Notes: generated by a model from the sequence alone, not told the origin. A stretch of DNA of 64,000 bases from Flavobacteriales bacterium (GCA_019638115.1 JAHBUK010000004.1:224794-288793); one strand, 5' to 3'; shown: positions 7,412-60,765, counted from the first letter of the stretch. Made by a program: numbers and translations.

Positions 7412-8023
7412 CTAACACCTCGTTTTGAACATCCCGCGATACTTCGCCAAAGGCTGAATCTGACCGCCTACCAATATCATTCCCTCTCCGACATCTGTGC
7501 GCACTGTCTCGCCTGCGCCAACATATGCACATGGACCAATCTTCCTTGGGCCGATTATCAGGGCATTCACTCCGACAAAGCTCCCACGATACACCACTGG
7601 GGACTCTTCTTCCGTCTCGTCCCAATCGAGAGTTGCGTTGTGATGACTATGAGCTATCTCGCCCATGTAGGTGACATTGTCTTCTATTACGGTGCGGTCC
7701 GCCACATGACCACCGATAATGCAGTGAGCGCCGATCTGAGCATCCTCGGATACGTGCTTGGCATAGAGGACGCGCGTCTTCATTCCCACCTGCGCGCCTC
7801 GACAGACTTTGGAATAGTCGTCTAGGATAACGCCGGTGCGTAGCGTTGCTCCAAGATGCACTGTGCAGAACGCGCCGATAATCACCCCATCCTCGATAAC
7901 CGTTGGCTCGTCTGACTGGTCGCCATAGCCAACGATTGAGCCATGACCTATGGTCACGTCTTTTCCAATCTTGACGTTTGGATGGACATAAATCCCAGAT
8001 CCGATCATACGGTACTCGCTCAT
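7412..8023 (-). CDS. left-handed beta-helix (hexapeptide-repeat) acyl/acetyltransferase
   Basis: 203 aa with repeated [LIV]-G-x-x-x-x hexapeptides: VKIGKDVTIGHGSIVGYG, IIGAFCTVHLGATL, IGAHCIIGGHV, YVGAGETV. Confidence 0.8.
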   Translation of the reverse strand: MSEYRMIGSGIYVHPNVKIGKDVTIGHGSIVGYGDQSDEPTVIEDGVIIGAFCTVHLGATLRTGVILDDYSKVCRGAQVGMKTRVLYAKHVSEDAQIGAHCIIGGHVADRTVIEDNVTYMGEIAHSHHNATLDWDETEEESPVVYRGSFVGVNALIIGPRKIGPCAYVGAGETVRTDVGEGMILVGGQIQPLAKYRGMFKTRC

Positions 8024-8832
8024 AGCGACTCTTCAATGATGCCCAGAGCCGTCTTGTAAATCCCGCGATGGATGAGCTTCGTCTCTGGATGGTTGAGATC
8101 TTCGTCAATCTCAATTCCAAAGCCATGCCCCACCCCTTTTATGATCTCTAGGCGTGTCTTCGGTGACTTGTGCTTCTTCGACGAAGTCAGCGGCACATCT
8201 TCGTCATCACTTCCATGAAAAATGACCACGCGCGAACCAAGATTCGACAGAGCCTGGATTCCGTTCACGTAGGGCAGTTCATTGATTAACGCACGGCCGA
8301 AACGTATCCCCGATGACTTAAGAAATCCGTGTTTGTCTAGCTGGCGGACGGCTGCCGGGGTTAAGCCCTTCTCCGTTACCAACTTGTTCCGTTCAAGGAC
8401 ATCGTTCTGGTAGTTGAGCACTGGCGCGTTGAGAATCACCTTCCTGATCTGCTCCTGCCGAGTGGTGTCCACCCAGTAAGCCGCGAGCCCCCCTCCGAAA
8501 CTGGTACCCACCAGGAAGAACCGCTTCGTACTTCGCTTGACACCTTCAGCCAGGGCGGTGTACGCAGCGGAAACGTCATTCACTATACCACTCAGCGTAA
8601 GCTCTTCAAGAGTGGTTTCGTGAACACCGTGAAAGCGATAGTCGAACCTGAAAGACGATACTCCATTTTCGGCCAGGTAGTTCGCATAGTCCGAGTGAAA
8701 GCCCAATTCATCACGCGAGGACGTAATACCATGCACAAAAAGAAGTGCCGCCTTTTCTTTGGCCGCTCTTTGCATGGTGCCTTCCAGCTTGTATCCATCG
8801 TAGCTACTGAACTTGATGGTCTCTTCGGTCAT
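8020..8832 (-). CDS. alpha/beta-fold hydrolase (serine hydrolase)
   Basis: 270 aa with an HG oxyanion motif (LLFVHGITSS), the nucleophile elbow GTSFGG, and a C-terminal GVGHGF histidine. Confidence 0.8.
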   Translation of the reverse strand: MTEETIKFSSYDGYKLEGTMQRAAKEKAALLFVHGITSSRDELGFHSDYANYLAENGVSSFRFDYRFHGVHETTLEELTLSGIVNDVSAAYTALAEGVKRSTKRFFLVGTSFGGGLAAYWVDTTRQEQIRKVILNAPVLNYQNDVLERNKLVTEKGLTPAAVRQLDKHGFLKSSGIRFGRALINELPYVNGIQALSNLGSRVVIFHGSDDEDVPLTSSKKHKSPKTRLEIIKGVGHGFGIEIDEDLNHPETKLIHRGIYKTALGIIEESL

Positions 8833-9130
8833 GGGATTCGCCTTTCATTAAGGGTTGACGGCCGATGCTGACTAACGCATGCCGGAAAATCCGTCAAGCG
8901 CCTCAGCTCCAAACATAGTCACTAACACGCAATCTTTGGCGCTATAGCCTCGGTGCTCCGCAGCCCCCCCTCCCGCGGATCTGCGATCCCTGGTTTCGAG
9001 CATGGCACACCCCCTGAACCGGTCCTTTCCCCAATTGGCAGAGTTCTCGCGCGCTGGTGCATTGATCCTATCTTGCTGTCGATAACCTTGCCAGCAAAAC
9101 CGTCGAGACCGGGTTCCAATTTCAACCTTT

Positions 9131-9337
9131 GTGCAAACTGCTGTGGCCGACATCGCTTACATAACCCCGAAGGTCCTTAAGTGGGCACGCACCACGGCCA
9201 GGATGTCGCTGGAGACGGCTGCGGCCAAGGTGAAAGTGACCCCGGAACGCCTGGAGGCTTGGGAGGATCCTGATAGCGCGGACAGGCCGACCATTCGGCA
9301 GGCAGAGAAGCTCGCCTGTTATCGCGAATATCAGTAA
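9131..9337 (+). pseudogene. N-terminal fragment of an HTH (XRE-like) domain of the type fused to ImmA/IrrE-family regulators; the ORF stops after ~68 codons where the conserved continuation is missing
   Basis: ITPKVLKWARTTARMSLETAAAKVKVTPERLEAWEDPDSADRPTIRQAEKLA matches the typical N-terminus I(T/N)PExLKWARE..GLS.EELA....PE.LE.WE.GE..PT..QLEKLA. The normally following (K)(L/V)Y(R/K)RPL...FFL and peptidase domain are absent. Confidence 0.4.
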
Positions 9338-9385
9338 CCCTATCCCCCCGATCGAACCCCTTCCCCCACGCCGTGTACAGGCCGG

Positions 9386-9835
9386 GTGATGCGACTACTG
9401 AACGCCCTCCTACCGCTGCTTCTGTTCGTCCCCTCCCTGCCCGCCACTGCCCAATGGTATGGACAGGGTGATCCCGCGTACCTCTTCCAACGCCTGGCAG
9501 GGCAGATGCAACAGAGTACGGCCGACAGCGCGGCCTTCGCTCGGTTCGGTGAAGCCATGGCGCAGACCACGCTGGACAAGGACCCGCTGCCCGAGCTACG
9601 GGAATACCGAATGGTGTGGGAGGTGAGCTGCGAAGGACGCACGGGGCTACTGCGCGGCGATGGCACCGACCTGATGAGTTTCCTCATGGACCCGCCCGAA
9701 AAGCGCTTCGGTGTGCCGGTGTGCTGTCCACAATTTTATGGCGGGCGCTATGCGGTGGTGCAATGGGCGCCCCCCACAGGCTTGGTGCGCTACCGGTACT
9801 GGTTCTTCGAGCGCACACCACAAAACGATCACTGA
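9386..9835 (+). CDS. hypothetical secreted protein (signal peptide)
   Basis: 149 aa with a hydrophobic N-terminus MMRLLNALLPLLLFVPSLPATAQ. High GC. No recognisable domain. Confidence 0.5.
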   Translation: MMRLLNALLPLLLFVPSLPATAQWYGQGDPAYLFQRLAGQMQQSTADSAAFARFGEAMAQTTLDKDPLPELREYRMVWEVSCEGRTGLLRGDGTDLMSFLMDPPEKRFGVPVCCPQFYGGRYAVVQWAPPTGLVRYRYWFFERTPQNDH

Positions 9836-9851
9836 ACGAAAACAGGAAGCC

Positions 9852-10274
9852 ATGCGCTCCATCCTTCCCCTCGGCTTGTTGCTCCTGGCCAACACCGTCC
9901 AAGCCCAGGACCAGCCCACCCTCCCCGACCCACAGCACGGTTACTTCGGAAGGCCATACTTCGAGAACTCTTCCGATAGCGCGGAATTCATGGATTTCCA
10001 TGCAGGCCTGCAATGGAACGAGACCGTCACTGCCTTGGACACTACGAGCAGAACCTACAAGCTGGTGTGGCGCGAGAACCAGCATGGCGGCCTTAGGATG
10101 GTGTCCCGTGGTAATGGAAGCACGCTGGTACGTTCAACGGGGACCGTGCGCGTAGGCCCCATGCACGATGAAGGCCACTTCCGCACCGCCAGCGGCAAGC
10201 ACGGCATCCTGATCGCTTGGGAAACACCCTGCGGTATGATCTGCCGGACGGCGAGCTATTACGTGGAGGAATGA
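9852..10274 (+). CDS. hypothetical secreted protein (signal peptide)
   Basis: Internal ATG at 9852 gives MRSILPLGLLLLANTVQAQDQ... (140 aa). No recognisable domain. Confidence 0.5.
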   Translation: MRSILPLGLLLLANTVQAQDQPTLPDPQHGYFGRPYFENSSDSAEFMDFHAGLQWNETVTALDTTSRTYKLVWRENQHGGLRMVSRGNGSTLVRSTGTVRVGPMHDEGHFRTASGKHGILIAWETPCGMICRTASYYVEE

Positions 10275-10328
10275 GCGGAATGAGCGCTCCATCGCGTGGC
10301 CGGCAAAGCCGTGGACTAATTTCGGGGC

Positions 10329-10766
10329 ATGGCCAGCAGATCAAGTAAACAAGCGGATGGTACACCCATCACCCTGCTCTCCGGCGGCAACCCACAAATA
10401 CCGAAAGGTCACGGCGATGCCGTGGTGCAGGCCTACATCAATGCCATGCCCGGCTGGAAGCAGGAAGTGGGTATCTGGCTGGACGAGGTGATCATGCGCA
10501 CCCTACCCGGCGTGCGGAAGATGGTGAAGTGGAACACGCCTTTCTATGGACTGGACGGGGAGACCTGGTTCCTGGGCTTCCACTGCCTGAACAAGTACGT
10601 GAAGGTGGCTTTCCTGAAGGGCGCGCACCTGAAGCCGATGCCACCGGGCACCAGCAAGCAGAAGGACCCGCGCTACCTGGACATTTACGAGAACGCCCTG
10701 CCGGATGAGGAGCAGTTCGTGAGCTGGGTGAAGCAAGCGGCGAAGCTGCCGGGGGAGAAGTTGTAG
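10329..10766 (+). CDS. DUF1801 (YdhG-like) domain protein
   Basis: 145 aa. The ...GWKQEVGIWLDEVIMRTLPGVRKMVKWNTPFYGLDGETWFLGFHCLNKYVKVAF pattern is typical of the family. Confidence 0.65.
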   Translation: MASRSSKQADGTPITLLSGGNPQIPKGHGDAVVQAYINAMPGWKQEVGIWLDEVIMRTLPGVRKMVKWNTPFYGLDGETWFLGFHCLNKYVKVAFLKGAHLKPMPPGTSKQKDPRYLDIYENALPDEEQFVSWVKQAAKLPGEKL

Positions 10767-10776
10767 GCCGGACCTT

Positions 10777-10837
10777 GCGGAGAATAGCGGATTTATTCTC
10801 CGCACCTTTTGCGGAGAATATCCGTACCTTTCTCCGC
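10777..10837 (+). terminator. two tandem GC-rich hairpins (GCGGAGAATA-loop-TATTCTCCGC, then GCGGAGA-loop-TCTCCGC), the first followed by CCTTTT; putative intrinsic terminator or operator upstream of the Fic gene
   Basis: A perfect 10-bp stem at 10777..10803 is followed by ACCTTTT. A second 7-bp stem lies at 10811..10837. Both sit between the DUF1801 gene stop (10766) and the Fic start (10854). Confidence 0.45.
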
Positions 10838-10853
10838 AGAAAGCACGACCGTC

Positions 10854-11957
10854 ATGCCCCGCTATGTCCACGAACTGCCCGACTGGCCTGCGTTCCATTG
10901 GGATGCGGAAGCCCTGGCTCCTGCGTTGGCGGCGGTGCATGAGCAGCAGGGCCGCTTGCTGGGGCGCATGACCGCTGTAGGCTTCGACCTGCGCACGGAA
11001 GCCGACTTCCAGACCATGACCACGGACGTATTGCGCACCAGCGAAATAGAGGGCGAGGTGCTGGACCCTGCACAAGTGCGTTCATCCTTGGCCAGGCGGC
11101 TGGGGCTGGATGTTTCCGGCGCTGCACATGTGGACCGCCATGTGGACGGCGTGGTGGAGATGCTGCTGGACGCCACCCGCAACTGCTACGAAAAACTCAC
11201 ACTGGAGCGGCTGTTCGGTTGGCACTCGGCGTTGTTCCCTGCTGGTAGAAGCGGAATGTTGAAGGTGCTCGTGGGCCAACTCCGCGACGATTCCACTGGT
11301 CCAATGCAGGTGGTCAGTGGACCGATGGGACGTGAGAAGGTACACTACCAGGCACCGGCTGCGAAGGGCTTGAAGAAGGATATGACGGCCTTCTTGAAAT
11401 GGGTGAATGGCAAGACAGTGATGGATCCGTTGCTCAAGGCCGGACTTGGGCACTTCTGGTTCGTGACGCTCCACCCGTTCGAGGACGGCAATGGCCGCAT
11501 GGCCCGTGCGGTAGCCGACCTGCTCTTGGCCCGTGCCGATGGAAGCCCACAGCGCTTCTACAGCATGAGCGCGCAGATCAGGAACGAGCGGAAGAAGTAC
11601 TACGACATACTGGAGCGATCACAGCGCAGCAGTTTGGACGTGACCGAATGGCTCGCGTGGTTCCTGGCTTGCCTGGGTCGTACCATGGCCGCTTCGGAAG
11701 CAATGCTCGCCGACGTGCTCAATAAGCACCGCTTCTGGCAAACCCATGCGAAGACGGTATTGAACGCACGTCAAGTGAAGGTGTTGAACAAGCTCTTCCA
11801 GGGCTTCGATGGCAACCTCAGCTCCGGCAAATACGCCAAGCTGGCCAAGACCTCGCAAGACAGTGCCGCGCGCGACCTGGCCGACCTGGTGGCGAAGAAG
11901 GTGATGAAGAAAGCCAAGGCCGGTGGTCGAAGCACGCATTACGTGTTGGTGCGCTGA
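10854..11957 (+). CDS. Fic family protein (filamentation induced by cAMP / AMPylation-type)
   Basis: Fic motif HPFEDGNGRMARAV. N-terminal region of the Fic-N/DUF4172 type. Start taken at the ATG at 10854 (MPRYVHELPDW). Confidence 0.85.
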   Translation: MPRYVHELPDWPAFHWDAEALAPALAAVHEQQGRLLGRMTAVGFDLRTEADFQTMTTDVLRTSEIEGEVLDPAQVRSSLARRLGLDVSGAAHVDRHVDGVVEMLLDATRNCYEKLTLERLFGWHSALFPAGRSGMLKVLVGQLRDDSTGPMQVVSGPMGREKVHYQAPAAKGLKKDMTAFLKWVNGKTVMDPLLKAGLGHFWFVTLHPFEDGNGRMARAVADLLLARADGSPQRFYSMSAQIRNERKKYYDILERSQRSSLDVTEWLAWFLACLGRTMAASEAMLADVLNKHRFWQTHAKTVLNARQVKVLNKLFQGFDGNLSSGKYAKLAKTSQDSAARDLADLVAKKVMKKAKAGGRSTHYVLVR

Positions 11958-11961
11958 TGTC

Positions 11962-12396
11962 ATGGAACCCTACCCGAAGGCATACCTCTACAAGCGCATC
12001 GTGCAGGCCAAACTGCTGATGGACGAACGCTTCATGGAGCGCATTGATGGAGAACTGATCAGCAATGAAGCGGCCTTCTCCCACTCGCATTTCATCCGGT
12101 TGTTCAAGCAGGTGTATGGTGTGGTGCCACGTGTTTACCTGAGCAACTTGCGACTGGACCGAGCGCAACAACTGCTGGACGAAGGATGCTCCGTTGCCGA
12201 TGCCTGCTTGCGTGTGGGGTTCGAGAGCGTGCCCACATTCAGCCGGGCGTTCAAGCGGCGTACCGGCACCACGCCAGCGGCCTACCGCAAGGTCCGCGAG
12301 GAACGGGCGCGGAACATGCAAGAGGAGCCACTGGAGCACATTCCAAACTGTTATGCGATGTGGCTGGGTTGGCCGCAAAAGCGCGATCCAGGATAA
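11962..12396 (+). CDS. AraC-family transcriptional regulator (HTH_18 domain only, ~144 aa)
   Basis: ISNEAAFSHSHFIRLFKQVYGVVPRVYLSNLRLDRAQQLL...VADACLRVGFESVPTFSRAFKRRTGTTPAAYR. Starts 5 nt after the Fic stop. Confidence 0.7.
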   Translation: MEPYPKAYLYKRIVQAKLLMDERFMERIDGELISNEAAFSHSHFIRLFKQVYGVVPRVYLSNLRLDRAQQLLDEGCSVADACLRVGFESVPTFSRAFKRRTGTTPAAYRKVREERARNMQEEPLEHIPNCYAMWLGWPQKRDPG

Positions 12397-12429
12397 GTGT
12401 CCGAACGGCGGTCGGCCTTCCTTTGTGCC

Positions 12430-12861
12430 ATGATCGCTCGCATCACACACCTTTCGGTCTACGTGCTGGACCAGGACCGCGCGCTGGACTTCTACACACA
12501 GAAGCTCGGATTCAAGAAGCACACCGACATCCCCATGCACGGCGGCGGGCGCTGGCTTACGGTAACGCCACCCGAGCAGCCTGAACTGGAAGTGGCGCTG
12601 ATGCCAACTTCGCCCTGGGGGCCTTGGAACGCGGAGAACGCCGCTGCCATGCGCAAGTTGGTGGAGCAAGGCATGTTCGGCTTTGCCGCCTTCAAGTGCA
12701 AGGACGTGCGCGCCACCTATGAGGAGTTGCATGCCAAGGGCGTGGAATTCACCATGCCGCCGACCCAACAACCCTTTGGCATCATCGCTGTGTTGAAGGA
12801 CGACAGCGGCAATACCTTCAGTCTATCGGAGCTGGAACCGAAGAAGGGTAAAAGGAAGTGA
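12430..12861 (+). CDS. VOC-family (glyoxalase/bleomycin-resistance fold) protein
   Basis: ITHLSVYVLDQDRALDFYTQKLGFKK...GGRWLTV is a typical VOC N-terminus. 143 aa. Confidence 0.7.
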   Translation: MIARITHLSVYVLDQDRALDFYTQKLGFKKHTDIPMHGGGRWLTVTPPEQPELEVALMPTSPWGPWNAENAAAMRKLVEQGMFGFAAFKCKDVRATYEELHAKGVEFTMPPTQQPFGIIAVLKDDSGNTFSLSELEPKKGKRK

Positions 12862-12867
12862 ATGGGG

Positions 12868-12956
12868 TTGGAGAGTTGAAGAGTTGAGGAGTTGAAGAGT
12901 TGGAGAGTTGAGGAGTTGAGGAGTTGGAGAGTTGAAGAGTTGAAGGGTTGAAGGGT
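12868..12956. repeat. tandem octamer repeat (AGTTGRRG)x11, intergenic
   Basis: ggttggagagttgaagagttgaggagttgaagagttggagagttgaggagttgaggagttggagagttgaagagttgaagggttgaagggtg. It lies between the VOC gene and the DoxX gene. The opposite-strand ORFs (STLQLLNSSTLQL...) are translation artefacts of the repeat. Confidence 0.85.
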
Positions 12957-13036
12957 GCGAGAGCACGAACCCACTGTTCCACCTCGGCACCCTTGGACTT
13001 TTGCACGCTCGCACAAGAAAACACAAGCACCCGACC

Positions 13037-13438
13037 ATGAACAAGCGCAACAGGATCATCTATTGGATCGCCACGGTATGGCTCACACTGGGCATGGTGG
13101 CCACTGGAATACAGCAACTCATGCACTTACCCATTGAAGAGGCCTTGGCACCACCGGGCACGCACGGTATGGCGGCACTGGGTTATCCGGCCTACCTGCT
13201 CACCATCATCGGCATCTGGAAACTGCTCGGCACGGTGGTGCTATTCCTTCCGCGCACACCACTGCTTAAGGAATGGGCCTATGTCGGCTTCTTCTTCCTG
13301 CTTTCAGGAGCGTTGTTCTCGCACATCGCCGTGGGACATGGCGCTGGCGATCTCTTTCCTGCCGGGTTCTTACTGGTGATGCTGGCGCTGTCGTGGTGGC
13401 TGCGCCCGCAGGATAAGAAGTGCGCTCAAGCCATTTAA
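13037..13438 (+). CDS. DoxX-family membrane protein
   Basis: 133 aa with four predicted TM helices. IIYWIATVWLTLGMVATGIQQL and LLGTVVLFLPRTPLLKEWAYVGFFFLLSGALFSHI are typical of DoxX. Confidence 0.65.
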   Translation: MNKRNRIIYWIATVWLTLGMVATGIQQLMHLPIEEALAPPGTHGMAALGYPAYLLTIIGIWKLLGTVVLFLPRTPLLKEWAYVGFFFLLSGALFSHIAVGHGAGDLFPAGFLLVMLALSWWLRPQDKKCAQAI

Positions 13439-13446
13439 TTCGCAGG

Positions 13447-14025
13447 ATGAACCCGAAAGTCGACTGGTTCTTCGCAAAGGACTCCAAGTGGCAGGAAGCC
13501 TTTCAACTGCTGCGTGACATCGCCTTGGACAGCGGCCTCACCGAGGAACTCAAGTGGGGCCACCCCTGCTACACGCTGAAGGGCAAGAACGTGTTCCTGA
13601 TGCACGGCTTCAAGGACTATTGCGCGTTGCTCTTCCATAAGGGCGCGTTGTTGAAGGACGATCACGGCATCCTGGTCCAGCAGACGGCCAACGTGCAAAG
13701 CGCGCGGCAGATCCGCTTCACCGGCCTGAAGCAGATCAAGGACATGGTGCCGGTGATATGCAGCATCATGCAGCAGGCCATAGCGATCGAACAAAGTGGA
13801 GCCAAAGTGCCCTTGAAGAAGACCGCGGAGTTCGAGATGCCGGAGGAATTCGCCACGGCCTTGAAGCAGATGCCCGAACTGAAGAAGGCCTTCAACGCGC
13901 TGACACCGGGACGGCAACGCGGCTATCTGTTACACTTTGCAGGTGCCAAACAGGCCAAGACACGCGAGGCACGGATCGAGAAGAACGTGGAGCGGATACT
14001 TGCTGGCAAGGGGCTCGATGACTGA
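13447..14025 (+). CDS. YdeI/OmpD-associated-like (DUF1801-related) protein
   Basis: 192 aa: FFAKDSKWQEAFQLLRDIALDSGLTEELKWGHPCYTLKGKNVFLMHGFKDYCALLF and the C-terminal ...PGRQRGYLLHFAGAKQAKTREARIEK motif. Confidence 0.6.
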   Translation: MNPKVDWFFAKDSKWQEAFQLLRDIALDSGLTEELKWGHPCYTLKGKNVFLMHGFKDYCALLFHKGALLKDDHGILVQQTANVQSARQIRFTGLKQIKDMVPVICSIMQQAIAIEQSGAKVPLKKTAEFEMPEEFATALKQMPELKKAFNALTPGRQRGYLLHFAGAKQAKTREARIEKNVERILAGKGLDD

Positions 14026-14440
14026 ACCCATGCTCTCCGGTGGCCGGCGCTTCAGCTCCGTGCAGGATATGCTGGACTTCCTACCTACGGAAGAACGCGA
14101 ACTGACCGAACAACTGCGGGAGCTGATCATCTCGGAGGCGCCGGACCTGAAGGAACGCATGAGCTTCAACGTGCCGTTCTACAAGGCACAGCGTGATGTG
14201 TGTTTCATCTGGCCGGCATCCGTGCTGTGGGGCAAGCGCAAGACCTACGAAGGTGTACGCTTCGGACTGAGCTATGGCAGCCTTGTACCGGGCAGCGAGC
14301 CTTACCTCCAACGCGGTCCACGCAAACAAATGCTCTGGCGCGACCTGACGACACTTTCGGACACCGACATGCGCCAGATCCGCACCTTGTTACAAGCTGC
14401 CTTAGCAGTTGATCGGGAACGCGCCCTTGGCTTACGGTGA
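14018..14440 (+). CDS. DUF1801 domain protein (paralogous to 10329..10766)
   Basis: 141 aa with ...ELIISEAPDLKERMSFNVPFYKAQRDVCFIWPAS.... Overlaps the previous gene by 8 nt. Confidence 0.6.
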   Translation: MTEPMLSGGRRFSSVQDMLDFLPTEERELTEQLRELIISEAPDLKERMSFNVPFYKAQRDVCFIWPASVLWGKRKTYEGVRFGLSYGSLVPGSEPYLQRGPRKQMLWRDLTTLSDTDMRQIRTLLQAALAVDRERALGLR

Positions 14441-14460
14441 AGCCTGAACTTCGCACACCC

Positions 14461-15153
14461 ATGCCGAAGTCCAACAACCCTGTGATCCTGCCCGGTACGC
14501 TCCGGTTCCTCCACGAGTTGGAGGCGCACAATGAGAAGCCTTGGTTCGAGGCCAACAAGCAGCGCTACCTCCTTGCCCATGCGAACATGGTGGCCTTCGC
14601 CGATGCCCTGCTGGAACGCATGCAGGCCCACGATAATCTGAGCACGCCGAGCGGTGCCAAGAGCCTGATGCGCATCTACACCGACCAGCGCTTCCACAAG
14701 GACAAGCCGCCCTATGCACCACGTTTCGGTGGAAGGTTGGTGCGCGTGAAACCGGCCCTGCGCGGCGGCTATTTCTATCGCATCCAGCCCGGCGATCGAT
14801 CGCACGTCACCTGCGGTTTCATGGGCCCCGAGGCCAGCGATCTGCGGCTTATCCGTCAGGACATCGACTACGACCATACCACCTGGCGGAAGATCCTGCG
14901 CGGCAAGAACCTGCGGGCGCACTTCGGAGAGCTGTTCGGTGAGGAAGTGGCTACCATTCCACGGGGATATCCGTTAGATCATCCAGCGGCGGACCTCCTG
15001 CGCAAACGGCAGTTCCTACTGCGTCGCACCTTCACCGACAAGGAAGTGCAAGCCCCGGAGTTCCTCGATGAAGTGGTGAAGACCTTCCGTGCGGTGCGCC
15101 CGTGGTTCGACCATATGACCGAAGTGCTGACCAGCGATGGCAATGGGGCGTGA
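14461..15153 (+). CDS. DUF2461 (TIGR02453) family protein
   Basis: 230 aa: LRFLHELEAHNEKPWFEANKQRYL...YFYRIQPGDRSHVTCGFMGPEASDLRLIRQDID is typical of this conserved hypothetical family. Confidence 0.65.
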   Translation: MPKSNNPVILPGTLRFLHELEAHNEKPWFEANKQRYLLAHANMVAFADALLERMQAHDNLSTPSGAKSLMRIYTDQRFHKDKPPYAPRFGGRLVRVKPALRGGYFYRIQPGDRSHVTCGFMGPEASDLRLIRQDIDYDHTTWRKILRGKNLRAHFGELFGEEVATIPRGYPLDHPAADLLRKRQFLLRRTFTDKEVQAPEFLDEVVKTFRAVRPWFDHMTEVLTSDGNGA

Positions 15154-49217: not shown

Positions 49218-49312
49218 AAGCTCGAACTTGCGTAGGGCTTCCTGAGGCACGAAGGGGCCCTGCGCTTTAGGACGTGGCCGCAGGGTCCCGAAGACGGAGA
49301 CCCTTCGGAGAT
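49218..49312. repeat. REP-like palindromic repeat element (family copy 1) at a convergent gene end
   Basis: ...cttcctgaggcacgaaggggccctgcgctttaggacgtggccgcagggtcccgaagacggagacccttcggag. The GGGRCCCTGCG / CGCAGGGTCCC arms form a stem. Confidence 0.75.
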
Positions 49313-49340
49313 TATGTGATCATGAAGAAACTATAATGAC

Positions 49341-53644: not shown

Positions 53645-53795
53645 AGTTCAAACCTGCGCAGAGTCTCCTGAGGTTCGAAGGGACCCTGCGCTTTAGGCCT
53701 TCAAACCTGCGCAGAGTCTCCTGAGGCACGAAGGGACCCTGCGCTTTATGCCTTGACCACAGGGGCTCGAAGACGGAGACACTGTGGAGGTATAT
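53645..53795. repeat. REP-like palindromic repeat element (family copy 2; two tandem ~57-bp units plus a partial unit)
   Basis: tcaaacctgcgcagagtctcctgaggttcgaagggaccctgcgctttaggcct is repeated with 3 substitutions, then ...gaccacaggggctcgaagacggagacactgtggagg. Confidence 0.8.
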
Positions 53796-53809
53796 GTTCC
53801 TGCCAAGGA

Positions 53810-54445
53810 CTAAGACAAACCATCCTCGTCCTCTTCCTCCTTCGGCCGGTGTGCAGCCACAAAGGCCCGTCGTTCCGCGCGCAGTGTGTCGAAGAACGCT
53901 GCTATGGCTGCTTCCGGCACCACCAGCTCAAGCGTGATGTAGCCCCACCCCGTATGCCGCATGCCGGTGGGGCAGATGCACACCTGCAGTAAGAAACGGT
54001 CATCGTCCTCCAGTGGTCGTCGGTGGTTCGGGTCGGGCAGTTCGTTGCCGTAAGCGCCGTTGGCCCGTTGCAGAAAGCCCTGCCTGAGGTCCTTCGCCAA
54101 CTCGGGCCAGGTATCATCCCATGGTATGCTGCTGCCAGGGTGGATGGCGATGCGGTAGGCGGGTGGGTAAAGCAGGATGTGGGCGCGGTGCTCCAGATCA
54201 TGCCACGCCCGGGGCATGCGGTCCTCCATAGCGGGCCGCAGCAGCGCCACCAGGTCGATCTCTTCGTTGGCCGAGTCGTCCGTCCATACGAAGCCGGGTG
54301 CGAGCAAGCCATTATGGCGGTTGCTCACCTCCTGCAACAAGGGAACGCCGTTGCAGAACAGACCCAGGGCCATGCACACGTCCTCATCCGGTTCATCGAA
54401 GTGATCGATCACCAGGGATAGGGAACCGTCTTGCAGGGTGGCCAT
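53810..54445 (-). CDS. hypothetical protein (acidic, no recognised domain)
   Basis: 211 aa, high GC, good periodicity. It ends in a poly-acidic tail EEEDEDGLS. Confidence 0.45.
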   Translation of the reverse strand: MATLQDGSLSLVIDHFDEPDEDVCMALGLFCNGVPLLQEVSNRHNGLLAPGFVWTDDSANEEIDLVALLRPAMEDRMPRAWHDLEHRAHILLYPPAYRIAIHPGSSIPWDDTWPELAKDLRQGFLQRANGAYGNELPDPNHRRPLEDDDRFLLQVCICPTGMRHTGWGYITLELVVPEAAIAAFFDTLRAERRAFVAAHRPKEEEDEDGLS

Positions 54446-54603: not shown

Positions 54604-56373
54604 CTAAGCACTGGGAATCTCGAAGACCTTAAGTGGATAGTTCTTCGAGTTCATTTCTCGCACACTCTGCACTAGTGAGAACTTAGCAATATTGGACTGA
54701 ATGCTGTCAAGGTTGTGGAATATGGACTTCCCATCCCGCCGGTCTGAACTGAAGGCCATGACATACACAATTTTCTTCGCCTTGAACTTGGCATAGAAAC
54801 TCTCCTCTAACACTGGTTCCGAACGTCCTTGGTTGTATCTAAGGAGTGTGCCCCGGAGGAATTCAAAGGATCCCGATTTCAGGTCACTCCATAGTCTCTG
54901 TGAGGAAATCAAAATCTGGTTTGATAGGTCGCGAATCTTCGCATTGAATCCCTTTTTCACGTGGATGAGGTAAATGTTGTACTCATCCTCGTAGAGGAGG
55001 TCACACAACTCAATGTTTTGAGATAGCTTGCGATCGAACACCATGAAGCCTGGTTGTGCTGAGTACTGAGCATTGTAGGCCTCTTCATCCAAATTTCCAT
55101 GTGGCCAAGGAATGTTCACACAAAGCTCTGGTATCCCATGGGCGCGAATCATTGCTTTACATTCGTCTGTGAGCGTTTCGACAAAGTCGCCCTTAACCCG
55201 ATACCATTTATCGTCGAGCAGGAACAGTGGTCTACTTCCAAACTCGAGTTCACAGGATAGGTGTTGTGTGAACATTGCATGCGTACACTGTGCGCCGTTT
55301 CTATAACCATAGACGCGTATGCCCGAGATGATAGCCTTGAAATTGTAAGGTGTGTTCTCCTCGATATTTTCGTAGATATACTGAAGCGCGGCTCTGTATA
55401 GGCCATGACGGTCACCGGAAGTATGAAAGGGAATTTCAGCATTGCGCGCAAAGAGTCGGTAGGTATCACACTCGTAGAACTCGTCCCATTTAGAAGGGTG
55501 GGTGAAGTCGTAGTCAAGGCCTTTTGCGTTTGGATCAGATCCTGGAGGGATCTTAAGCATCATGTCGTCTCGAAGTCGAGAATAGAGACCCAGTCGGTGG
55601 TTGTTTTCAATCAATCCTACATCTCGTTCTCTGACGAAAAGACTCAGGGGCTTGGGCTGTTGAATTTGAAGAATTTCATCAAGTCTTTGTAGTAGAGCAT
55701 GAGTTTCGTCGAAGGTCATTCGGTGCTTGATGAAGAAGGATGAGCATACTTCGGCCACAACTTTGGTCATGTCTTCGACAGCGAGGAAATCGAATACATC
55801 TGCCACTAGTACGTCACGGAGTAATAACCGCATATGTACCGGGATCCGACCGAACTGAAGAGAATCAATGAGCCGTTGTTCGTTTCGGTATGTCTCCTTG
55901 GTTAACGAGAGGTTTCCGGTTATGCCTCTGGAGTCAATCGAATAGACGATGTCATTCGCGGGATCAGCTATTCTCTCAAAGAGGTCGATACCGAAGGTGT
56001 GGTTAAGGTATCGCTTGATCACTTGCATTCCTGATCCGCCGATGATTGCAAAGAGCGTATTGTTGACAGAGGAGAAAAGAACGAAGGAAACCGTCTGAAT
56101 TGTGAAGTCGTCAGGGTTGATGATTTCTTGCGGTAAGAACGCTGTCCATGCCGACTCCACCTCATCTTGATTGAATGTGTATATGAAATAGTCCGTATTG
56201 TCAATCTTTATATTGTTGACGGGTTTTCCACAAGAATCCTCTCTATTGGTTGCCTTTCGGTGCTTGTCAACGATATGTTGGATCACCTTGGAATGCTCCG
56301 AATAGTCTCTGATTTCATAGAAAAGAGTGTCAATTTGATAGACTTTGATATGGCGAGTAACGCTGTAATCCAT
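54604..56373 (-). CDS. low-GC 589-aa protein of unknown function adjacent to the Type IIL RM gene (possibly of the sporadically distributed TIGR04141/DUF6119-type family; assignment from memory only)
   Basis: Long AT-rich ORF (~42% GC) with strong coding periodicity. No P-loop or classical nuclease motif recognised. Same strand as, and downstream of, the MmeI-like gene. Confidence 0.45.
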   Translation of the reverse strand: MDYSVTRHIKVYQIDTLFYEIRDYSEHSKVIQHIVDKHRKATNREDSCGKPVNNIKIDNTDYFIYTFNQDEVESAWTAFLPQEIINPDDFTIQTVSFVLFSSVNNTLFAIIGGSGMQVIKRYLNHTFGIDLFERIADPANDIVYSIDSRGITGNLSLTKETYRNEQRLIDSLQFGRIPVHMRLLLRDVLVADVFDFLAVEDMTKVVAEVCSSFFIKHRMTFDETHALLQRLDEILQIQQPKPLSLFVRERDVGLIENNHRLGLYSRLRDDMMLKIPPGSDPNAKGLDYDFTHPSKWDEFYECDTYRLFARNAEIPFHTSGDRHGLYRAALQYIYENIEENTPYNFKAIISGIRVYGYRNGAQCTHAMFTQHLSCELEFGSRPLFLLDDKWYRVKGDFVETLTDECKAMIRAHGIPELCVNIPWPHGNLDEEAYNAQYSAQPGFMVFDRKLSQNIELCDLLYEDEYNIYLIHVKKGFNAKIRDLSNQILISSQRLWSDLKSGSFEFLRGTLLRYNQGRSEPVLEESFYAKFKAKKIVYVMAFSSDRRDGKSIFHNLDSIQSNIAKFSLVQSVREMNSKNYPLKVFEIPSA

Positions 56374-56445
56374 TCGTATAGTTTAATTAATTATTTATGT
56401 GGTTTGAAAAGACCGAGCCCCGGCGAAGGTTCATCACTTCAGCGA

Positions 56446-56835
56446 CTAACTGTTGAAGAGCGCCACGATCGAAATGATCAAGGACGCTGCTGCCACTAAA
56501 AGGGCAAGCTTGTCGTAACGAAAAGAGCGAAGTGTCCCTTGTTTTATGGCTTTGTCCAGGGACAGTTCTTCCTGTGCGGATACATAACCGCCTCGCTGAA
56601 TATGGGCCATGCCCGTGCTTGTGATAATATGTGGCTCTCCCATTGGATCGAAGCGGTTTCGAGCCATGTAGCCATCGTCTAAGAGTCGTTTGATGATCAG
56701 ATCGACCTCCCACTTCTCCTCTGTCGAAGCCACGGTACGGACCAGATCTCCGATCCGCATGCGTTTACTAGCTGGATCACTTTCTCGGTGCAGAAGTCCG
56801 CGCAGCACCTGGTCCAATTGCTCGTGATGGGTCAT
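56446..56835 (-). CDS. small protein with C-terminal transmembrane anchor, between the RM enzyme and the 589-aa protein
   Basis: 130 aa. A soluble N-terminal part (MTHHEQLDQVLRGLLHRESD...) is followed by the single C-terminal TM helix KLALLVAAASLIISIVALF. Starts 5 nt after the RM gene stop. Confidence 0.45.
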   Translation of the reverse strand: MTHHEQLDQVLRGLLHRESDPASKRMRIGDLVRTVASTEEKWEVDLIIKRLLDDGYMARNRFDPMGEPHIITSTGMAHIQRGGYVSAQEELSLDKAIKQGTLRSFRYDKLALLVAAASLIISIVALFNS

Positions 56836-56839
56836 CGTA

Positions 56840-59629
56840 TCAAGATTTGCGCGTTGAATTTGCCATCCCACCCCCCAACACCCCACCCACCACCTCCTCA
56901 TACCGCTCAAACAGGTACCCCACCCGTTCGCTCTCACTCTCGAACGGCTTACTCCGGTAGCACTTATCCACCGCGCGGTCCAGCGCCTGGTGGGCTTTCA
57001 CCAAATCGGCGGGCATGGTGAGGGGATCGTACAGGTCCGCCAAACTGCTGCCGGGATGGTTTGCACGCGCATCCAGCACCCCTTGCGCGGCGGCCTCCAC
57101 CGCTGCCCGTTGCGCGGCCGTGGGGGAGCTGGGCCAGGGGAAGTTGTTGTAGACGATCTTGTTGGAGTAGCGGTAACGGCTTTCGAGCCTGCCAGCTACG
57201 GCACGCATCCATGCATTGTGCATTGCACTGGCCAGGATCCCGAAGTGAAACAGTTTGGCGCCTGGGACAACGAGGCAAAGATTACTTGCGATGACATCCT
57301 TGGGCATGAAGCCTATTGGTACGTACGGCCGTTTCTCCGAAGAGACACTGGGAATGATGATGTAGCTGGAATTGGGTTGTCGGTCCTCGCCGAATAGTGT
57401 TGGGGTCGATGCTAGTTTCTGGGTAGCGCCTCGCTTACTGCTTGACCGGTGCGCCTTGACCTTAGTGACACGTTCAAGCACGAGGGGCATCGCCTTCAAC
57501 TCTTGTGGGGAAGCATGCTTGAGCCACAGGCACCATCGATCTAGTCCATTGATGAACTCTTCAGCACCAACAAAGCGGTGCACGAATTTCTTCGCTCCGG
57601 GTTCCTGTTTCAGAAACTCGCGTTTCGCATCATCCTCGATGATCAGATGGCCGCCATCGTTCGGCATGCTGCCGAACACGATCTCCGGCACATTGCAGAT
57701 CGGCTTGCTGCGGCTCGGGATGAGCACATCGCGGCCGGCCACCAGGTATGGGTTGATGTTGTCCACCACCTCCACCAACGGTTCCGCCTTGGGGTCGCTG
57801 TAGCTGTAAAGGCGCTTCTTCGGCGTGTCGTGGTCCGCGAAACCGATGATGACACAATGCACGGCCGCCACGCCGCGCGCCTCGTTGTTCCAACGGAAGG
57901 TGCGGTGCGCGAAGTGGATCTTGATGCCCTGCGCCAGCAGCGGCCCCCAGAGCGCTGCCACCTGCTCGCCCTGCGCGATGCTGTTGGTGCTTACGAAGGC
58001 GCATGTAGTGCTGCCCTGTCCGTGCAGTTGCATGTACCGCGCCCCCAGCCCGTACCACGCGCATACAAAGTCCAGAATGCCGCTGTTGGGCGCGTTGTCC
58101 ATGGCGGCCAACAGGTCGGTGCGCATCTCGGCCGTCATCAACTTGCTGCCCACGAAGGGCGGATTGCCCAGGATGTAGTCATAGCGTTTTCCCTTGGGCA
58201 GTGGTGCGGCCCAATCGGTGCGCAGGGCATTGGCATTCAATACCGTGGCGCTCTTCCGCAGCGGTATGCGCACCACGTATTCGCCAAAGGCCTGGCCGAT
58301 CTCCTGGTTCATCTGGTGGTCCGTAAGCCACAGCGCCACCTGCGCGATCTGCGCGGGGAAGTCCTCGATCTCTATGCCGTAGAACTGGTCCACGTTCAGC
58401 AGGATCAGCTGGTCCACGTTGGTCACCTGCTGACCCTTCATCAGCGCGCGGATCACCTCCATTTCCAAGCGCCGCAGCTCGCGGTAGGTGATCACAAGGA
58501 AGTTGCCGCAACCACAGGCGGGGTCGAGGAAGCGGAGTTCGCTCAGCTTCTTGTGGAACTTCTCCAGCGGAGTAGGCACACGGTTCTTTGCCATGCGCTG
58601 TTTGGTGGTGGGCGCGGTGCCCTTCACCCGGTTGAACTCCTCCCACAACTCATCGAGGAACAAGGGTTTGATGAGCTTGAGGATGTTGGCCTCGCTGGTG
58701 TAGTGCGCCCCCAGGTCGCGGCGGGCCTTGGGGTCCATCACGCTCTGGAACAGCGCGCCGAAGATGGCGGGGCTGATGCGGCTCCAATCCAGTTGGCTGG
58801 CCTCCAGCAAGGTGATGCGCATGGCCCCGTCCCAGTCGGCCATGGGCAGGCGTTCCTCGAAGAGCTTGCCGTTCACGTAGGGGAATTCAGCAAGGCGTTC
58901 GTCCAGGTTGCGCGAGCGCTGCGCTTTCTCGCTGTTCAACACCTGGAAGAGGCGCTCCAGCTTGGGGCCGAGGTCGCTGCCATCCTCGCTGGTGTGACCG
59001 TAGACCCAATCGGCAAAGGCGTTGTTCTCGAAGATGCCCGTATCGTCGGCAAAGAGGATGAAGAGCATCCGCACGAGGTACACCTCCAGCGCATGGCCTT
59101 CGTAGCCGGTGGCCTTCAGCTCGTCGTGCAGGCGGCCCATCAGCTCGGCCGCTCGGATGTTCACGGGGTCCTGCTCGCGCGGGGCGTGGCTGGTGTAGCC
59201 ACTGATGAAGTCGAAGCGGTCGATGTGCTTGGGTAGCTCGGCCAGCTTCAGCTCGAAGGCTGCACCCGTTTCCAAGTGGTGCAGGTGGATGCGCGCGAAA
59301 TCACTGACCACGATGTACTCGGGCAGTTCGGTGTCCTTCAAGCCATGCAGGTAATCGATCGCCTGCCCGTGCGCCTTGGCCAGGTCCTTGCCCCGGCTCT
59401 TGTGTTCCACCACCAGCTTGCCCGGCCAGTAGAGGTCTATGTAGCCTTGGCGGTCGTCCAGCTTCTTCACCAACTGCTCGAACACGGCCACGCGTTTGCG
59501 CGGCACACCGAACACGTTCAGGAAGCCATCCCAGAAGCTTTTGGCATCGGCATCCTCGTTGTGCGCATCACGCCATTCGTGGGCAAAGGCCGTGGCACGC
59601 TTGCGGATCTCGTTCTTGGATAGGGGCAT
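56840..59629 (-). CDS. MmeI-family Type IIL (Type IIG-like) bifunctional restriction endonuclease / N6-adenine DNA methyltransferase
   Basis: 929 aa. The N-terminus MPLSKNEIRKRATAFAHEWRDAHNEDADAKSFWDGFLNVFGV with DLYWPGKLVVEHKSRGKDL (PD-ExK) resembles the MmeI nuclease domain. The central region has SAM-binding LDPACGCGNFLV and the catalytic motif NPPF. A C-terminal target-recognition region follows. Confidence 0.85.
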   Translation of the reverse strand: MPLSKNEIRKRATAFAHEWRDAHNEDADAKSFWDGFLNVFGVPRKRVAVFEQLVKKLDDRQGYIDLYWPGKLVVEHKSRGKDLAKAHGQAIDYLHGLKDTELPEYIVVSDFARIHLHHLETGAAFELKLAELPKHIDRFDFISGYTSHAPREQDPVNIRAAELMGRLHDELKATGYEGHALEVYLVRMLFILFADDTGIFENNAFADWVYGHTSEDGSDLGPKLERLFQVLNSEKAQRSRNLDERLAEFPYVNGKLFEERLPMADWDGAMRITLLEASQLDWSRISPAIFGALFQSVMDPKARRDLGAHYTSEANILKLIKPLFLDELWEEFNRVKGTAPTTKQRMAKNRVPTPLEKFHKKLSELRFLDPACGCGNFLVITYRELRRLEMEVIRALMKGQQVTNVDQLILLNVDQFYGIEIEDFPAQIAQVALWLTDHQMNQEIGQAFGEYVVRIPLRKSATVLNANALRTDWAAPLPKGKRYDYILGNPPFVGSKLMTAEMRTDLLAAMDNAPNSGILDFVCAWYGLGARYMQLHGQGSTTCAFVSTNSIAQGEQVAALWGPLLAQGIKIHFAHRTFRWNNEARGVAAVHCVIIGFADHDTPKKRLYSYSDPKAEPLVEVVDNINPYLVAGRDVLIPSRSKPICNVPEIVFGSMPNDGGHLIIEDDAKREFLKQEPGAKKFVHRFVGAEEFINGLDRWCLWLKHASPQELKAMPLVLERVTKVKAHRSSSKRGATQKLASTPTLFGEDRQPNSSYIIIPSVSSEKRPYVPIGFMPKDVIASNLCLVVPGAKLFHFGILASAMHNAWMRAVAGRLESRYRYSNKIVYNNFPWPSSPTAAQRAAVEAAAQGVLDARANHPGSSLADLYDPLTMPADLVKAHQALDRAVDKCYRSKPFESESERVGYLFERYEEVVGGVLGGGMANSTRKS

Positions 59630-59733
59630 GATGCTGATGGAATACGCGTCAAATAGCTAAGCCCAAGAATAAGGATTGCGTAAGATGTGACCAACCCATA
59701 TGGGTAAATTCCAACTTTGACTTACTTAGCCCA

Positions 59734-60483
59734 ATGGCAGAATTCCTTACCGCCACCGATACGAGTGCCGCCATAGAGCGTGTGATACGAGAAGCCAAAA
59801 AAGAGCTGACCTTGATCAGCGCTTACGTCTACCCTCGATTCATCTACTTGGAGCGATTGCGTGATGCTGCTGCACGTGGAGTACAGATCACCTTGGTATT
59901 CGGCAAAAGAAAAATGGACAACCGTGTTAAATCGCAATTCGAGCAAGTGAGTGGACTGCGTATCCATTTCTTGGATGAGCTTCACGCCAAGTGCTATTGC
60001 AACGAAAAGCACGCTGTGGTTACCTCGCTCAACCTGTTGAACAGTTCGGAGGCCCGCAACCGGGAGATGGGCGTTCTTCTGGACGCTCAGAATGACGCTA
60101 AGGCCTATGCTGACTGCATGGCCGAAGTGCAAAGTATTCTGCAGGCATCCAACCTTGTCTATTCATCACGAACACTGGGAGAACGTCCATCGGTTCGTAC
60201 CAACTCCACATTCCCCAAGGCAGGTTTTTGTATTCGCTGCGGCAAGAACGAGCAGTGCGACCCGGACGCCCCCTTGTGCATGGATGATTTCAAGGTGTGG
60301 GTGCGCCATGAGGACCCGCAATTCCCTGAGCACTATTGCCATACTTGCGGCCAACGCGCACAGGTCTGTATGGCAAAGCCGATGTGTGCTGGCTGTATGG
60401 AACTATATCGCCCGGCGATCGATGCCTTGAACGCATCACGCAAGATCGTTCGCTCCTTCGGAAGGCGCACTTGGCGTGAGTAA
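59734..60483 (+). CDS. PLD-family (single HKD motif) nuclease-like protein with C-terminal Cys-rich putative zinc-binding module
   Basis: HAKCYCNEKHAVVTSLNLLNSSEARNREMG is an HxK...N..S...N.E.G (HKD) motif. The C-terminus CIRCGKNEQC...HYCHTCGQRAQVCMAKPMCAGC has at least 8 Cys. Intermediate GC. Divergent from the RM gene. Confidence 0.55.
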   Translation: MAEFLTATDTSAAIERVIREAKKELTLISAYVYPRFIYLERLRDAAARGVQITLVFGKRKMDNRVKSQFEQVSGLRIHFLDELHAKCYCNEKHAVVTSLNLLNSSEARNREMGVLLDAQNDAKAYADCMAEVQSILQASNLVYSSRTLGERPSVRTNSTFPKAGFCIRCGKNEQCDPDAPLCMDDFKVWVRHEDPQFPEHYCHTCGQRAQVCMAKPMCAGCMELYRPAIDALNASRKIVRSFGRRTWRE

Positions 60484-60499
60484 GTGACCATGCACCTCC

Positions 60500-60735
60500 C
60501 AAACCTTCGCAGCGTCTCAAACCTGCGTAGGGTCTCCTGAGGCACGATGGGACCCTGCGCTTTGTGCCTTGACCGCAGGGTCCCGAAGACGGAGACCCTT
60601 CGGAGGTTTGACCTTCGCAGCGTCTCCTGAGGCACGAAGGGACCCTGCGCTTTATGCCTTGACCGCAGGGTCCCGAAGACGGAGACCCTGCGGAGGTTCA
60701 GGGTCCCGAAGACGGAGACCCTGCGGAGGTTTAGG
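60500..60735. repeat. REP-like palindromic repeat element (family copy 3; ~3.5 tandem units)
   Basis: The ctcctgaggcacgaagggaccctgcgctttatgccttgaccgcagggtcccgaagacggagaccct[t/g]cggaggtt units share GGGACCCTGCG/CGCAGGGTCCC and GGAGACCCT.CGGAGG arms with copies 1 and 2. Confidence 0.8.
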
Positions 60736-60765
60736 TTCAGTAAACGAAAACGCCCGAACAGCCTC

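Follow-up and report, generated by a model that had tools for sequence, protein, structure and literature searches.

The window analysed here is a stretch of 64,000 nt of DNA from a metagenome-assembled genome (MAG) of a Flavobacteriales bacterium (GCA_019638115.1 JAHBUK010000004.1:224794-288793), and the subject of this work is a group of four adjacent genes within it, encoding a 929-amino-acid (aa) restriction-modification (RM) enzyme of the MmeI family, a small membrane-anchored protein, a protein of the DUF6119/TIGR04141 family and, reading divergently, a phospholipase D (PLD)-family nuclease with a putative zinc-finger tail, here called PLD-ZnF (Table 1). All four open reading frames (ORFs) were found where a preliminary description of the locus had placed them, and the 589-aa, 129-aa and 249-aa products are each 100% identical to NCBI entries on one contig. 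The tight spacing of the co-oriented genes was borne out, the measured distances being 4 nt between the MmeI stop codon and the ATG of the small gene and 72 nt between the stop codon of the latter and the ATG of the DUF6119 gene, rather than 5 and about 75 nt. The same applies to the mosaic composition of the locus, since the GC content of DUF6119 is 0.457, not the approximately 42% given earlier, and lies far below that of MmeI (0.609), with intermediate values for the small gene (0.521) and PLD-ZnF (0.531) in a window of 0.578. The defence-type character of the locus is confirmed. For comparison, 183 loci were fetched in total, identified below by L numbers and annotated with longest-ORF calls made for this analysis. 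The new result is that PLD-ZnF recurs beside MmeI in four arrangements that are independent of one another, in most cases with a gene for a tentatively SIR2-like protein in the slot next to MmeI.

Table 1. Features of the islet and its boundaries (positions counted from the first nucleotide of the window).
Feature	Position	Strand	Basis
Left boundary, two copies of a ~90-nt palindromic repeat unit	53652..53800	+	Repeat search; direct orientation relative to the copies at 60503-60738
211-aa ORF inside the repeat-bracketed islet, GC 0.62	53810..54445	-	ORF list
DUF6119/TIGR04141 protein, 589 aa, GC 0.457, C-terminal PD-(D/E)xK-like domain	54604..56373	-	
Small protein, 129 aa, C-terminal transmembrane helix	56446..56835	-	Sequence, homologues, alignment, hydropathy, dN/dS
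MmeI-family Type IIL (IIG) enzyme, 929 aa, catalytic and SAM motifs intact	56840..59629	-	Pfam, PADLOC, 5HR4 alignment, dN/dS
Exchanged target-recognition segment, MmeI residues 651-800	57230..57679	-	Identity, dS, blastn gap versus L088
Divergent intergenic region between MmeI and PLD-ZnF, 104 nt	59630..59733	.	Sequence
PLD-ZnF nuclease, 249 aa	59734..60483	+	Single-HKD domain at residues 1-140, linker, Cys/His tail at ~165-222
Right boundary, 2-3 copies of the same ~90-nt palindromic repeat	60503..60738	+	Repeat search, folding

The 929-aa protein had been described as a single-chain RM enzyme of the MmeI type, and this identification is upheld by all five Pfam domains of the family (MmeI_N, MmeI_hel, MmeI_Mtase, MmeI_TRD and MmeI_C; E 1e-23 to 1e-87), which follow the plan of an N-terminal nuclease, a helical spacer, a gamma-class N6-adenine methyltransferase, a target-recognition domain (TRD) and a C-terminal domain, by a score of 1207 bits against the PADLOC Type IIG model and by collinearity of residues 1-913 with crystallised MmeI (1069 bits). 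The likeness to this family, classed as Type IIL (IIG/IIS) (Morgan et al. 2009, PMC2731913; Callahan et al. 2016, PMC4833311; PDB 5HR4), extends over the full length of the protein and includes the D-X9-ExK nuclease motif, whose triad D65/E75/K77 in YIDLYWPGKLVVEHKSRGKDL aligns with D70/E80/K82 in VDLFWPGILLIEMK, the residues defined as catalytic in MmeI (PMC2731913), as well as S-adenosylmethionine (SAM) motif I in FLDPACGCGNFLV (DPACGCGNF) and motif IV in GNPPFVG (NPPF). As in the family there is no separate methyltransferase gene, no second one being present among the ORFs of 53.8-61.9 kb. The closest relative, with 87% identity, is the enzyme of L088, and across residues 1-650 the two genes differ with a dS of 0.25 and a dN/dS of 0.10, identity ranging from 84 to 100% by block and reaching 98-100% across most of residues 101-650. 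A check for inactivating changes found the motifs intact and purifying selection at work, and the gene encodes a complete, apparently active enzyme.

The TRD of the window enzyme differs from that of L088, since identity falls to 46-52% at the aa level within residues 651-800, where dS is saturated (3.8) and where blastn homology is interrupted at 57247-57528. This pattern implies a recent exchange of the TRD on a conserved enzyme body, and with it a recent change in recognition specificity, which is the signature expected of a working RM enzyme that changes its specificity. Members of the MmeI family bind an asymmetric site, methylate one adenine on one strand with SAM and cut unmodified DNA about 20/18 nt away. 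By homology, the 929-aa protein would be a working Type IIL enzyme that performs both cleavage and one-strand methylation as in the rest of the family. The protein also matches the MADS models mad2 (E 1e-44, residues 22-511) and mad5 (E 6e-7, residues 757-849), and MADS may contain a split MmeI-like module.

The divergent gene encodes, as had been described, a single-HKD PLD nuclease with a Cys-rich tail. The 249-aa protein has the Nuc-like single-HKD PLD fold and matches PLDc_2 with one HKD-type motif (H84-x-K86...N90), its invariant residues being H84, K86, N90, S98 and N100, and a poorly conserved linker leads to a tail with 8 Cys and 3 His arranged as CxxC...C...CHxC...C..C. From these features it is probably a homodimeric, metal-independent nuclease with a zinc-finger DNA-binding tail. 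It is unlike other single-HKD PLD nucleases (Nuc of pKM101, NucT and the nuclease domains of BfiI, NgoAVII and SauUSI) in possessing this Cys/His tail, in having Asn for Asp in the motif (H-x-K-x3-N) and in repeatedly adjoining adenine methyltransferases. A housekeeping cardiolipin synthase (ClsB), named in the preliminary description as the alternative to exclude, was rejected on a score of 30.7 bits against a cut-off of 281 and on the single HKD motif in 249 aa. DrmC of DISARM (equivalog NF038319) was likewise rejected (49.3 bits against a cut-off of 133); DrmC models are the best NCBIfam match and 17 of the 20 PADLOC matches, the top PADLOC match being MkoB. No relative of PLD-ZnF was found in viral contigs, and in the plasmid collection the PLD domain alone gave matches, at 27-36% identity.

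Relatives of PLD-ZnF that are 50-70% identical were located on contigs, and their surroundings carry the principal finding of this work. In L088 a divergent MmeI/PLD pair is arranged as in the window (MmeI 87% and PLD 68% identical), with a 369-aa gene overlapping the MmeI stop codon; in L090-92 the order is MmeI, a 353-aa gene and PLD, all co-directional and overlapping; in L181 it is MmeI, HEPN_AbiU2, a 355-aa gene and PLD; and in L178 a fragmented MmeI is followed by DUF559, PBECR2-like and HNH-like genes and PLD. The other contexts comprise a Type I HsdM-like methyltransferase with PLD 3-4 nt later (L089 and L175), an HNH-like gene followed by PLD at a contig end (L173), and DUF559 followed by PLD in an island with AAA_15, GmrSD and SocA and no methyltransferase (L176). 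PLD-ZnF therefore lies no more than three genes from an MmeI-family gene in the window, L088, L090-92, L181 and L178; counting the window and L088 as one context, and the closely related L089 and L175 as another, MmeI is found within three genes in 4 of 7 independent PLD-ZnF contexts versus none of 80 DUF6119 loci (Fisher p = 1.6e-5). Conversely, the four closest MmeI relatives found (87, 64, 61 and 55% identity) all carry a PLD-ZnF neighbour, and three of them also the SIR2-like gene, which sets this group apart from other MmeI-family enzymes. The proposed association of MmeI with accessory genes thus holds for PLD-ZnF, and not for the small and DUF6119 genes, which are not regular partners. 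Between L091 and L092 the SIR2-like and PLD genes are identical and the MmeI alleles only 62% identical in the C-terminal half; here the RM allele has been replaced and its accessory context has stayed fixed. In L089 (6522-8774) and L175 (1-1378) there is no obvious HsdS or HsdR near the HsdM-like and PLD-ZnF genes, and these two genes may form an RM-type pair of methyltransferase and PLD nuclease.

The position just 3' of MmeI is occupied differently from one locus to another. In the relatives it holds genes for the 353-369-aa proteins (L088 3985-5094(-), L092 5781-6842(+) and L181 3447-4514(+)), which are 44-46% identical to one another and contain GAGAS, NYD and IIGYSF motifs. SIR2 models match them weakly (PADLOC E ~1e-4, PDB E 0.02) and Asn stands where the histidine of the LHG motif of the family is expected, and they are tentatively called SIR2-like. 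Their gene overlaps MmeI by 4 nt in L088 and L092 and is separated from PLD by 3 nt in L092 and L181, and MmeI, the SIR2-like gene and PLD-ZnF, found together in three loci, would be an undescribed trio. In the window no SIR2-like homologue was detected by tblastn or hidden Markov model (HMM) searches, and the small and DUF6119 genes stand in that position. Homology with L088 breaks off some 30 nt short of the MmeI stop codon and, on the other side, inside the 3' part of PLD. Immediately after MmeI the GC content drops in both loci, from 0.61-0.62 in MmeI to 0.505 in the SIR2-like gene of L088 and to 0.52 and 0.457 in the small and DUF6119 genes of the window. A search of the accessible literature returned nothing relevant on MmeI with phospholipase D, nor on Type IIG with SIR2 and PLD.

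The small gene, read from the ATG at 56835 to 56446, encodes 129 aa rather than the 130 aa of the preliminary description, and this start is preferred over a longer GTG ORF because homologues begin at the same MTH... sequence. The C-terminal transmembrane (TM) anchor recognised earlier stands, since residues 110-128 form a hydrophobic segment with a mean Kyte-Doolittle value of 2.5 and, of the 19-residue windows that begin ahead of residue 86, none exceeds 0.17; the segment follows a soluble N-terminal part of about 100 residues with the conserved pattern ...DGY...GEP..IT..G..FIQ.GGY. The gene is of a winged helix-turn-helix (wHTH)-like/TM type. No PADLOC, Pfam or NCBIfam model matches the protein, even at E <= 1, and a profile search of 1.84 billion protein representatives yielded 62 relatives of 97-312 aa (most of them 127-190) that are built alike, with a soluble N-terminal part that is conserved and, near residue 110-130, a hydrophobic helix. 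Its close homologues form three clusters (74-77% identity) in a narrow lineage, all of which adjoin MmeI remnants, namely an N-terminal stub of residues 1-129 (L081-84), scattered pseudogene pieces (L085), and the last MmeI residues with an inserted HEPN_Apea-like gene (L086). These contexts come from few contigs, most of them short. The small gene is intact in them and its dN/dS of 0.08-0.13 indicates purifying selection, and it therefore survives without a functional MmeI. Downstream of it lies DUF3800 in L081-84 and L086 (10-nt gap), or else other small ORFs, and never DUF6119; no relative was found in the other 160 MmeI or DUF6119 loci. As to the proximity of the small and DUF6119 genes to RM or defence genes, the relatives of the small gene do sit beside MmeI genes, though decayed ones, and have DUF3800 after them, and the surroundings of DUF6119 are rich in defence genes.

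The 589-aa protein, tentatively likened in the preliminary description to TIGR04141/DUF6119, passes both curated cut-offs, with 97.2 bits against a cut-off of 27 for PF19614 (DUF6119) over residues 36-584 and 76.6 bits against 35 for TIGR04141. A set of 141 homologues was collected, nearly all with PF19614, and the length of the family in the clade sampled is 580-600 aa. No PADLOC-DB v2.0.0 model, PDB sequence profile, or tblastn hit in plasmid or phage collections matched the protein, and nothing on DUF6119 or TIGR04141 was found in the searchable literature. The invariant residues E430, D447, E455, D458, H471 and K473 all fall within the C-terminal domain, for which weak similarity suggests a PD-(D/E)xK-like nuclease fold. 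The motif reads D458...H471-V-K473 (D...HxK), with His at the position of the expected second acid, so that catalytic competence is plausible, not assured. In this it departs from the D...(D/E)xK motif of the PD-(D/E)xK defence nucleases (HamA of Hachiman, SduA of Shedu, Cap4 and Upx), to which no relation was seen at the sequence level with PADLOC models and PDB profiles. The N-terminal ~430 residues have no convincing structural relative in Foldseek searches, the best match, RdgC, being marginal (E 0.026).

For the neighbourhoods of DUF6119 one genome per species was taken, giving 80 loci with flanks of up to 10 kb, mostly from Flavobacteriia, Cytophagia and Saprospiria. No MmeI-family gene and no relative of the small protein is present in any of the 80, and in the copies that are 80-84% identical (L001 and L002, from related MAGs) the DNA shared with the window is the DUF6119 gene alone, which in L001, L002 and the window, that is, in three hosts, lies 10-13 GC points below its surroundings. 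When the four neighbours on each side were clustered, no family reached more than 7 of the 80 loci. The immediate neighbours are of kinds usual in defence islands, among them Type IIG x3, AbiC x3, Abi_2, KAP/PifA x2, GajA x2, PtuA x2, AriA/AAA_15 x3, YobI, PRTase-CE, Mrr, HNH and HTH-peptidase M78 x5. The 135 genes adjacent to DUF6119 match 288 PADLOC families, as compared with 93 for 101 genes that lie over 6.5 kb from it in those loci, a rough control; the surroundings of DUF6119 are hypervariable, defence-rich islands of Bacteroidota. Fused HTH and peptidase M78 (ImmA/IrrE, CapP-like) regulators adjoin DUF6119 in 5 of the 80 loci, including L002 (236-1513), and one lies beside the MmeI/SIR2-like pair of L088 (2696-3850), together with DUF4411; they hint that these genes may be controlled in response to damage or phage. 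In 8 of the 80 loci there is an adenine methyltransferase or Type IIG gene, upstream of DUF6119 in all eight and on the same strand in seven. DUF6119 as an obligate RM partner was rejected, since the other 72 loci have no such gene; the earlier suggestion that the protein tends to neighbour RM genes holds occasionally, for the Type IIG genes directly upstream of it in L021, L022 and L027, and fails as regards MmeI.

Among known systems, DISARM class 1 is the closest analogue of the MmeI-PLD pairing, as it combines the MmeI-like adenine methyltransferase DrmMI with the DrmA/DrmB helicase complex and the PLD nuclease DrmC, an accessory and dispensable component (PMC9142583). Both have an MmeI-like methyltransferase module beside a small PLD nuclease, and the C-terminal half of the 929-aa protein matches DrmMI (E 7.5e-31). 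Unlike DISARM, the islet has no DrmA, DrmB or DrmD/E, its methyltransferase keeps its own nuclease domain and its PLD protein bears a zinc-finger tail; no helicase or DUF1998 gene of a DISARM core was found in the islet or its flanks in the ORF list or with Pfam. DISARM, MADS and cardiolipin synthase were rejected as identities of the MmeI/PLD pair on cut-offs and missing core genes. A different kind of precedent is offered by PrrC, which guards EcoprrI from within the hsd locus as an RM-linked abortive-infection guard. The relatives resemble it in that an effector-type gene, the SIR2-like one, overlaps the MmeI stop codon and is thus coupled to an RM locus; the likeness is one of gene layout, and the window itself has no SIR2-like gene.

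In light of these comparisons, we lean, though not strongly, towards reading the locus as a small defence islet around MmeI, in which MmeI and PLD-ZnF form a pair, the low-GC genes occupy a replaceable cargo slot and DUF6119 is independent of the rest. PLD-ZnF, the recurrent companion of this MmeI group, would cooperate with the enzyme as an accessory DNA-degrading nuclease, in a role comparable by analogy to that of DrmC in DISARM, and the position just 3' of MmeI would accept different cargo, the SIR2-like gene in the relatives and the small and DUF6119 genes here. DUF6119 would be an autonomous single-gene module moving between Bacteroidota defence islands and, by its predicted fold and company, a defence or exclusion protein of nuclease type that acts alone, without requiring MmeI; its autonomy is argued by the 80 loci without MmeI or the small gene, by homology confined to the gene, by the lack of a shared neighbour family and by the low GC content in three hosts.

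Several observations weigh against this reading. The sample behind the PLD-MmeI link is small, consisting of 7 contexts that share descent and lie mostly on short metagenomic contigs. Of the 80 MmeI relatives from metagenomes (43-60% identity; at least 2 kb of sequence downstream in 41 and at least 2 kb upstream in 38), one has a PLD-ZnF or SIR2-like gene, namely the L092 contig again. This narrow link agrees with the report that nuclease-bearing MmeI homologues have no consistently flanking gene (Morgan et al. 2009, PMC2731913) and with the earlier statement that such enzymes are normally solitary. Between the window and L088 the dS of PLD is saturated and that of the MmeI core is 0.25, and the two genes therefore do not have a single shared history. 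The independence of DUF6119 is challenged by the three full-length Type IIG genes among its 80 loci (L021, L022 and L027), each directly upstream of it and on the same strand, and by genes of PLD-ZnF architecture in 3 of the 80, each no more than two genes away. In L021 (Tenacibaculum crassostreae JO-1, a cultured strain; NZ_CAZELE010000003.1, about 224.5-233.3 kb), at 6720-14490 of the fetched locus, an Eco57I-type Type IIG gene, DUF6119, PLD-ZnF and AAA_15 form a co-directional array with gaps of ~45-80 nt downstream of a DUF5906/VapE-like gene, so that the trio of Type IIG, DUF6119 and PLD-ZnF seen in the window recurs from non-orthologous parts. Such placement beside DUF6119 is unlikely for unrelated residents and leaves room for a facultative functional link. 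Finally, the searchable literature holds no experiment for any of the three accessory families.

The gene placements around DUF6119 lend themselves to a modular RM-plus-effector system, an unlikely alternative that is nonetheless the best placed, in which MmeI and PLD-ZnF are constant and the genes of the 3' slot, SIR2-like in the relatives and DUF6119 with or without the small protein here, are interchangeable effectors triggered, in a PrrC-like manner, when restriction fails or is inhibited. Translational coupling speaks for it, as seen in the 4-nt MmeI/SIR2-like overlap of L088 and L092 and the 4-nt gap between MmeI and the small gene in the window, as does the 3-nt spacing of the SIR2-like and PLD genes in L092 and L181; the array of L021, its strongest argument, and the Type IIG-DUF6119 pairs of L022 and L027 (gaps of ~25-80 nt) would be independent recurrences of the same design. 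It is set back by the 72 of 80 sampled DUF6119 loci that have no adenine methyltransferase or Type IIG gene, by the unrelated contexts of the closest DUF6119 relatives, by the distance of 72 nt and the strongly different GC content that separate DUF6119 from the small gene, and by the insertion of unrelated HEPN_AbiU2, DUF559, PBECR2 and HEPN_Apea-like genes at the same place, which looks like an insertion hotspot rather than a designed slot. A version in which MmeI, here and in its closest relatives, is the sensing and marking arm, PLD-ZnF the constant accessory and the third part interchangeable, with DUF6119 as a new RM-coupled nuclease effector, as the array of L021 would also suggest, we regard as doubtful.

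It is also possible, and in our judgement improbable, that each of the five genes, PLD-ZnF among them, resides in a defence-island insertion hotspot independently of the others, the adjacency of PLD and MmeI reflecting shared descent and hitch-hiking. The PLD tree has a star-like shape and does not follow that of MmeI, the dS of the MmeI core and of PLD differ more than 10-fold, PLD-ZnF occurs without a methyltransferase (L176) and beside DUF6119/AbiC (L026 and L028), and the single case among 80 metagenomic MmeI relatives points in the same direction. Mere co-location is hard to reconcile with an adjacency that survives rearrangement (divergent versus co-directional), gene insertions, exchange of the MmeI allele (L091 versus L092) and 40-45% protein divergence, or with the HsdM-type adenine methyltransferase that is the immediate neighbour of PLD-ZnF, at 3-4 nt, in the single independent context of L089 and L175. 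The composite of the preliminary description, one co-adapted system of MmeI, small TM protein, DUF6119 and PLD, is very improbable despite the tight spacing, the common orientation of three genes and the plausibility of all four products as nucleic-acid or defence proteins, since the set was found nowhere else among the 183 fetched loci (none of 80 DUF6119, 80 MmeI and ~20 PLD or small-gene loci), no other MmeI or DUF6119 locus has a member of the small-gene family, and the genes differ in GC content and have relatives that combine each part with other partners.

The favoured reading, a small islet around MmeI, also has visible limits on the chromosome. The 6.7-kb segment at ~53.8-60.5 kb is bracketed by direct copies of the ~90-nt palindromic repeat, the two sides being 83-89% identical, and within the window the full unit is confined to these boundaries, with a sub-element also at 49289-49313. 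The repeat folds as nested hairpins (z = -8), belongs to no Rfam family and is absent from all 183 fetched loci; it may mark the gain of the islet, or a route of its loss by recombination. Inside the islet, the 211-aa ORF has no Pfam, PADLOC or NCBIfam match, even at E <= 1, and no relative in any fetched locus. The MmeI/PLD intergenic region shows no convincing sigma-70 site, under a scan model that excludes Bacteroidota promoters, and promoter and terminator scans, subject to that same limit, performed no better than shuffled sequences. The flanking genes are ordinary chromosomal ones, encoding ArgRS, FtsK, T9SS-sorted proteins, a TPR protein, DUF3575, Spo0M and an ion channel. No tRNA gene was found in the 64-kb window, a Pfam search of ORFs in the islet and its flanks turned up neither an integrase nor a transposase domain, and there is therefore no sign of a classical mobile element.

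In conclusion, the locus is a lead to uncharacterised defence genes and not a new four-gene machine, the MmeI gene itself being ordinary. Enzymes of the MmeI type are regarded as self-sufficient single-chain RM systems without consistent neighbours (PMC2731913), and a group of them that keeps a PLD nuclease, usually together with a SIR2-like gene, would, if the association is true, connect classical restriction of Type IIL with the multi-gene organisation of DISARM and with abortive infection guarded by RM. In the case of DUF6119, its residence in defence islands and its nuclease-like C-terminal domain mark it out as a concrete candidate for a new defence protein encoded by one gene.

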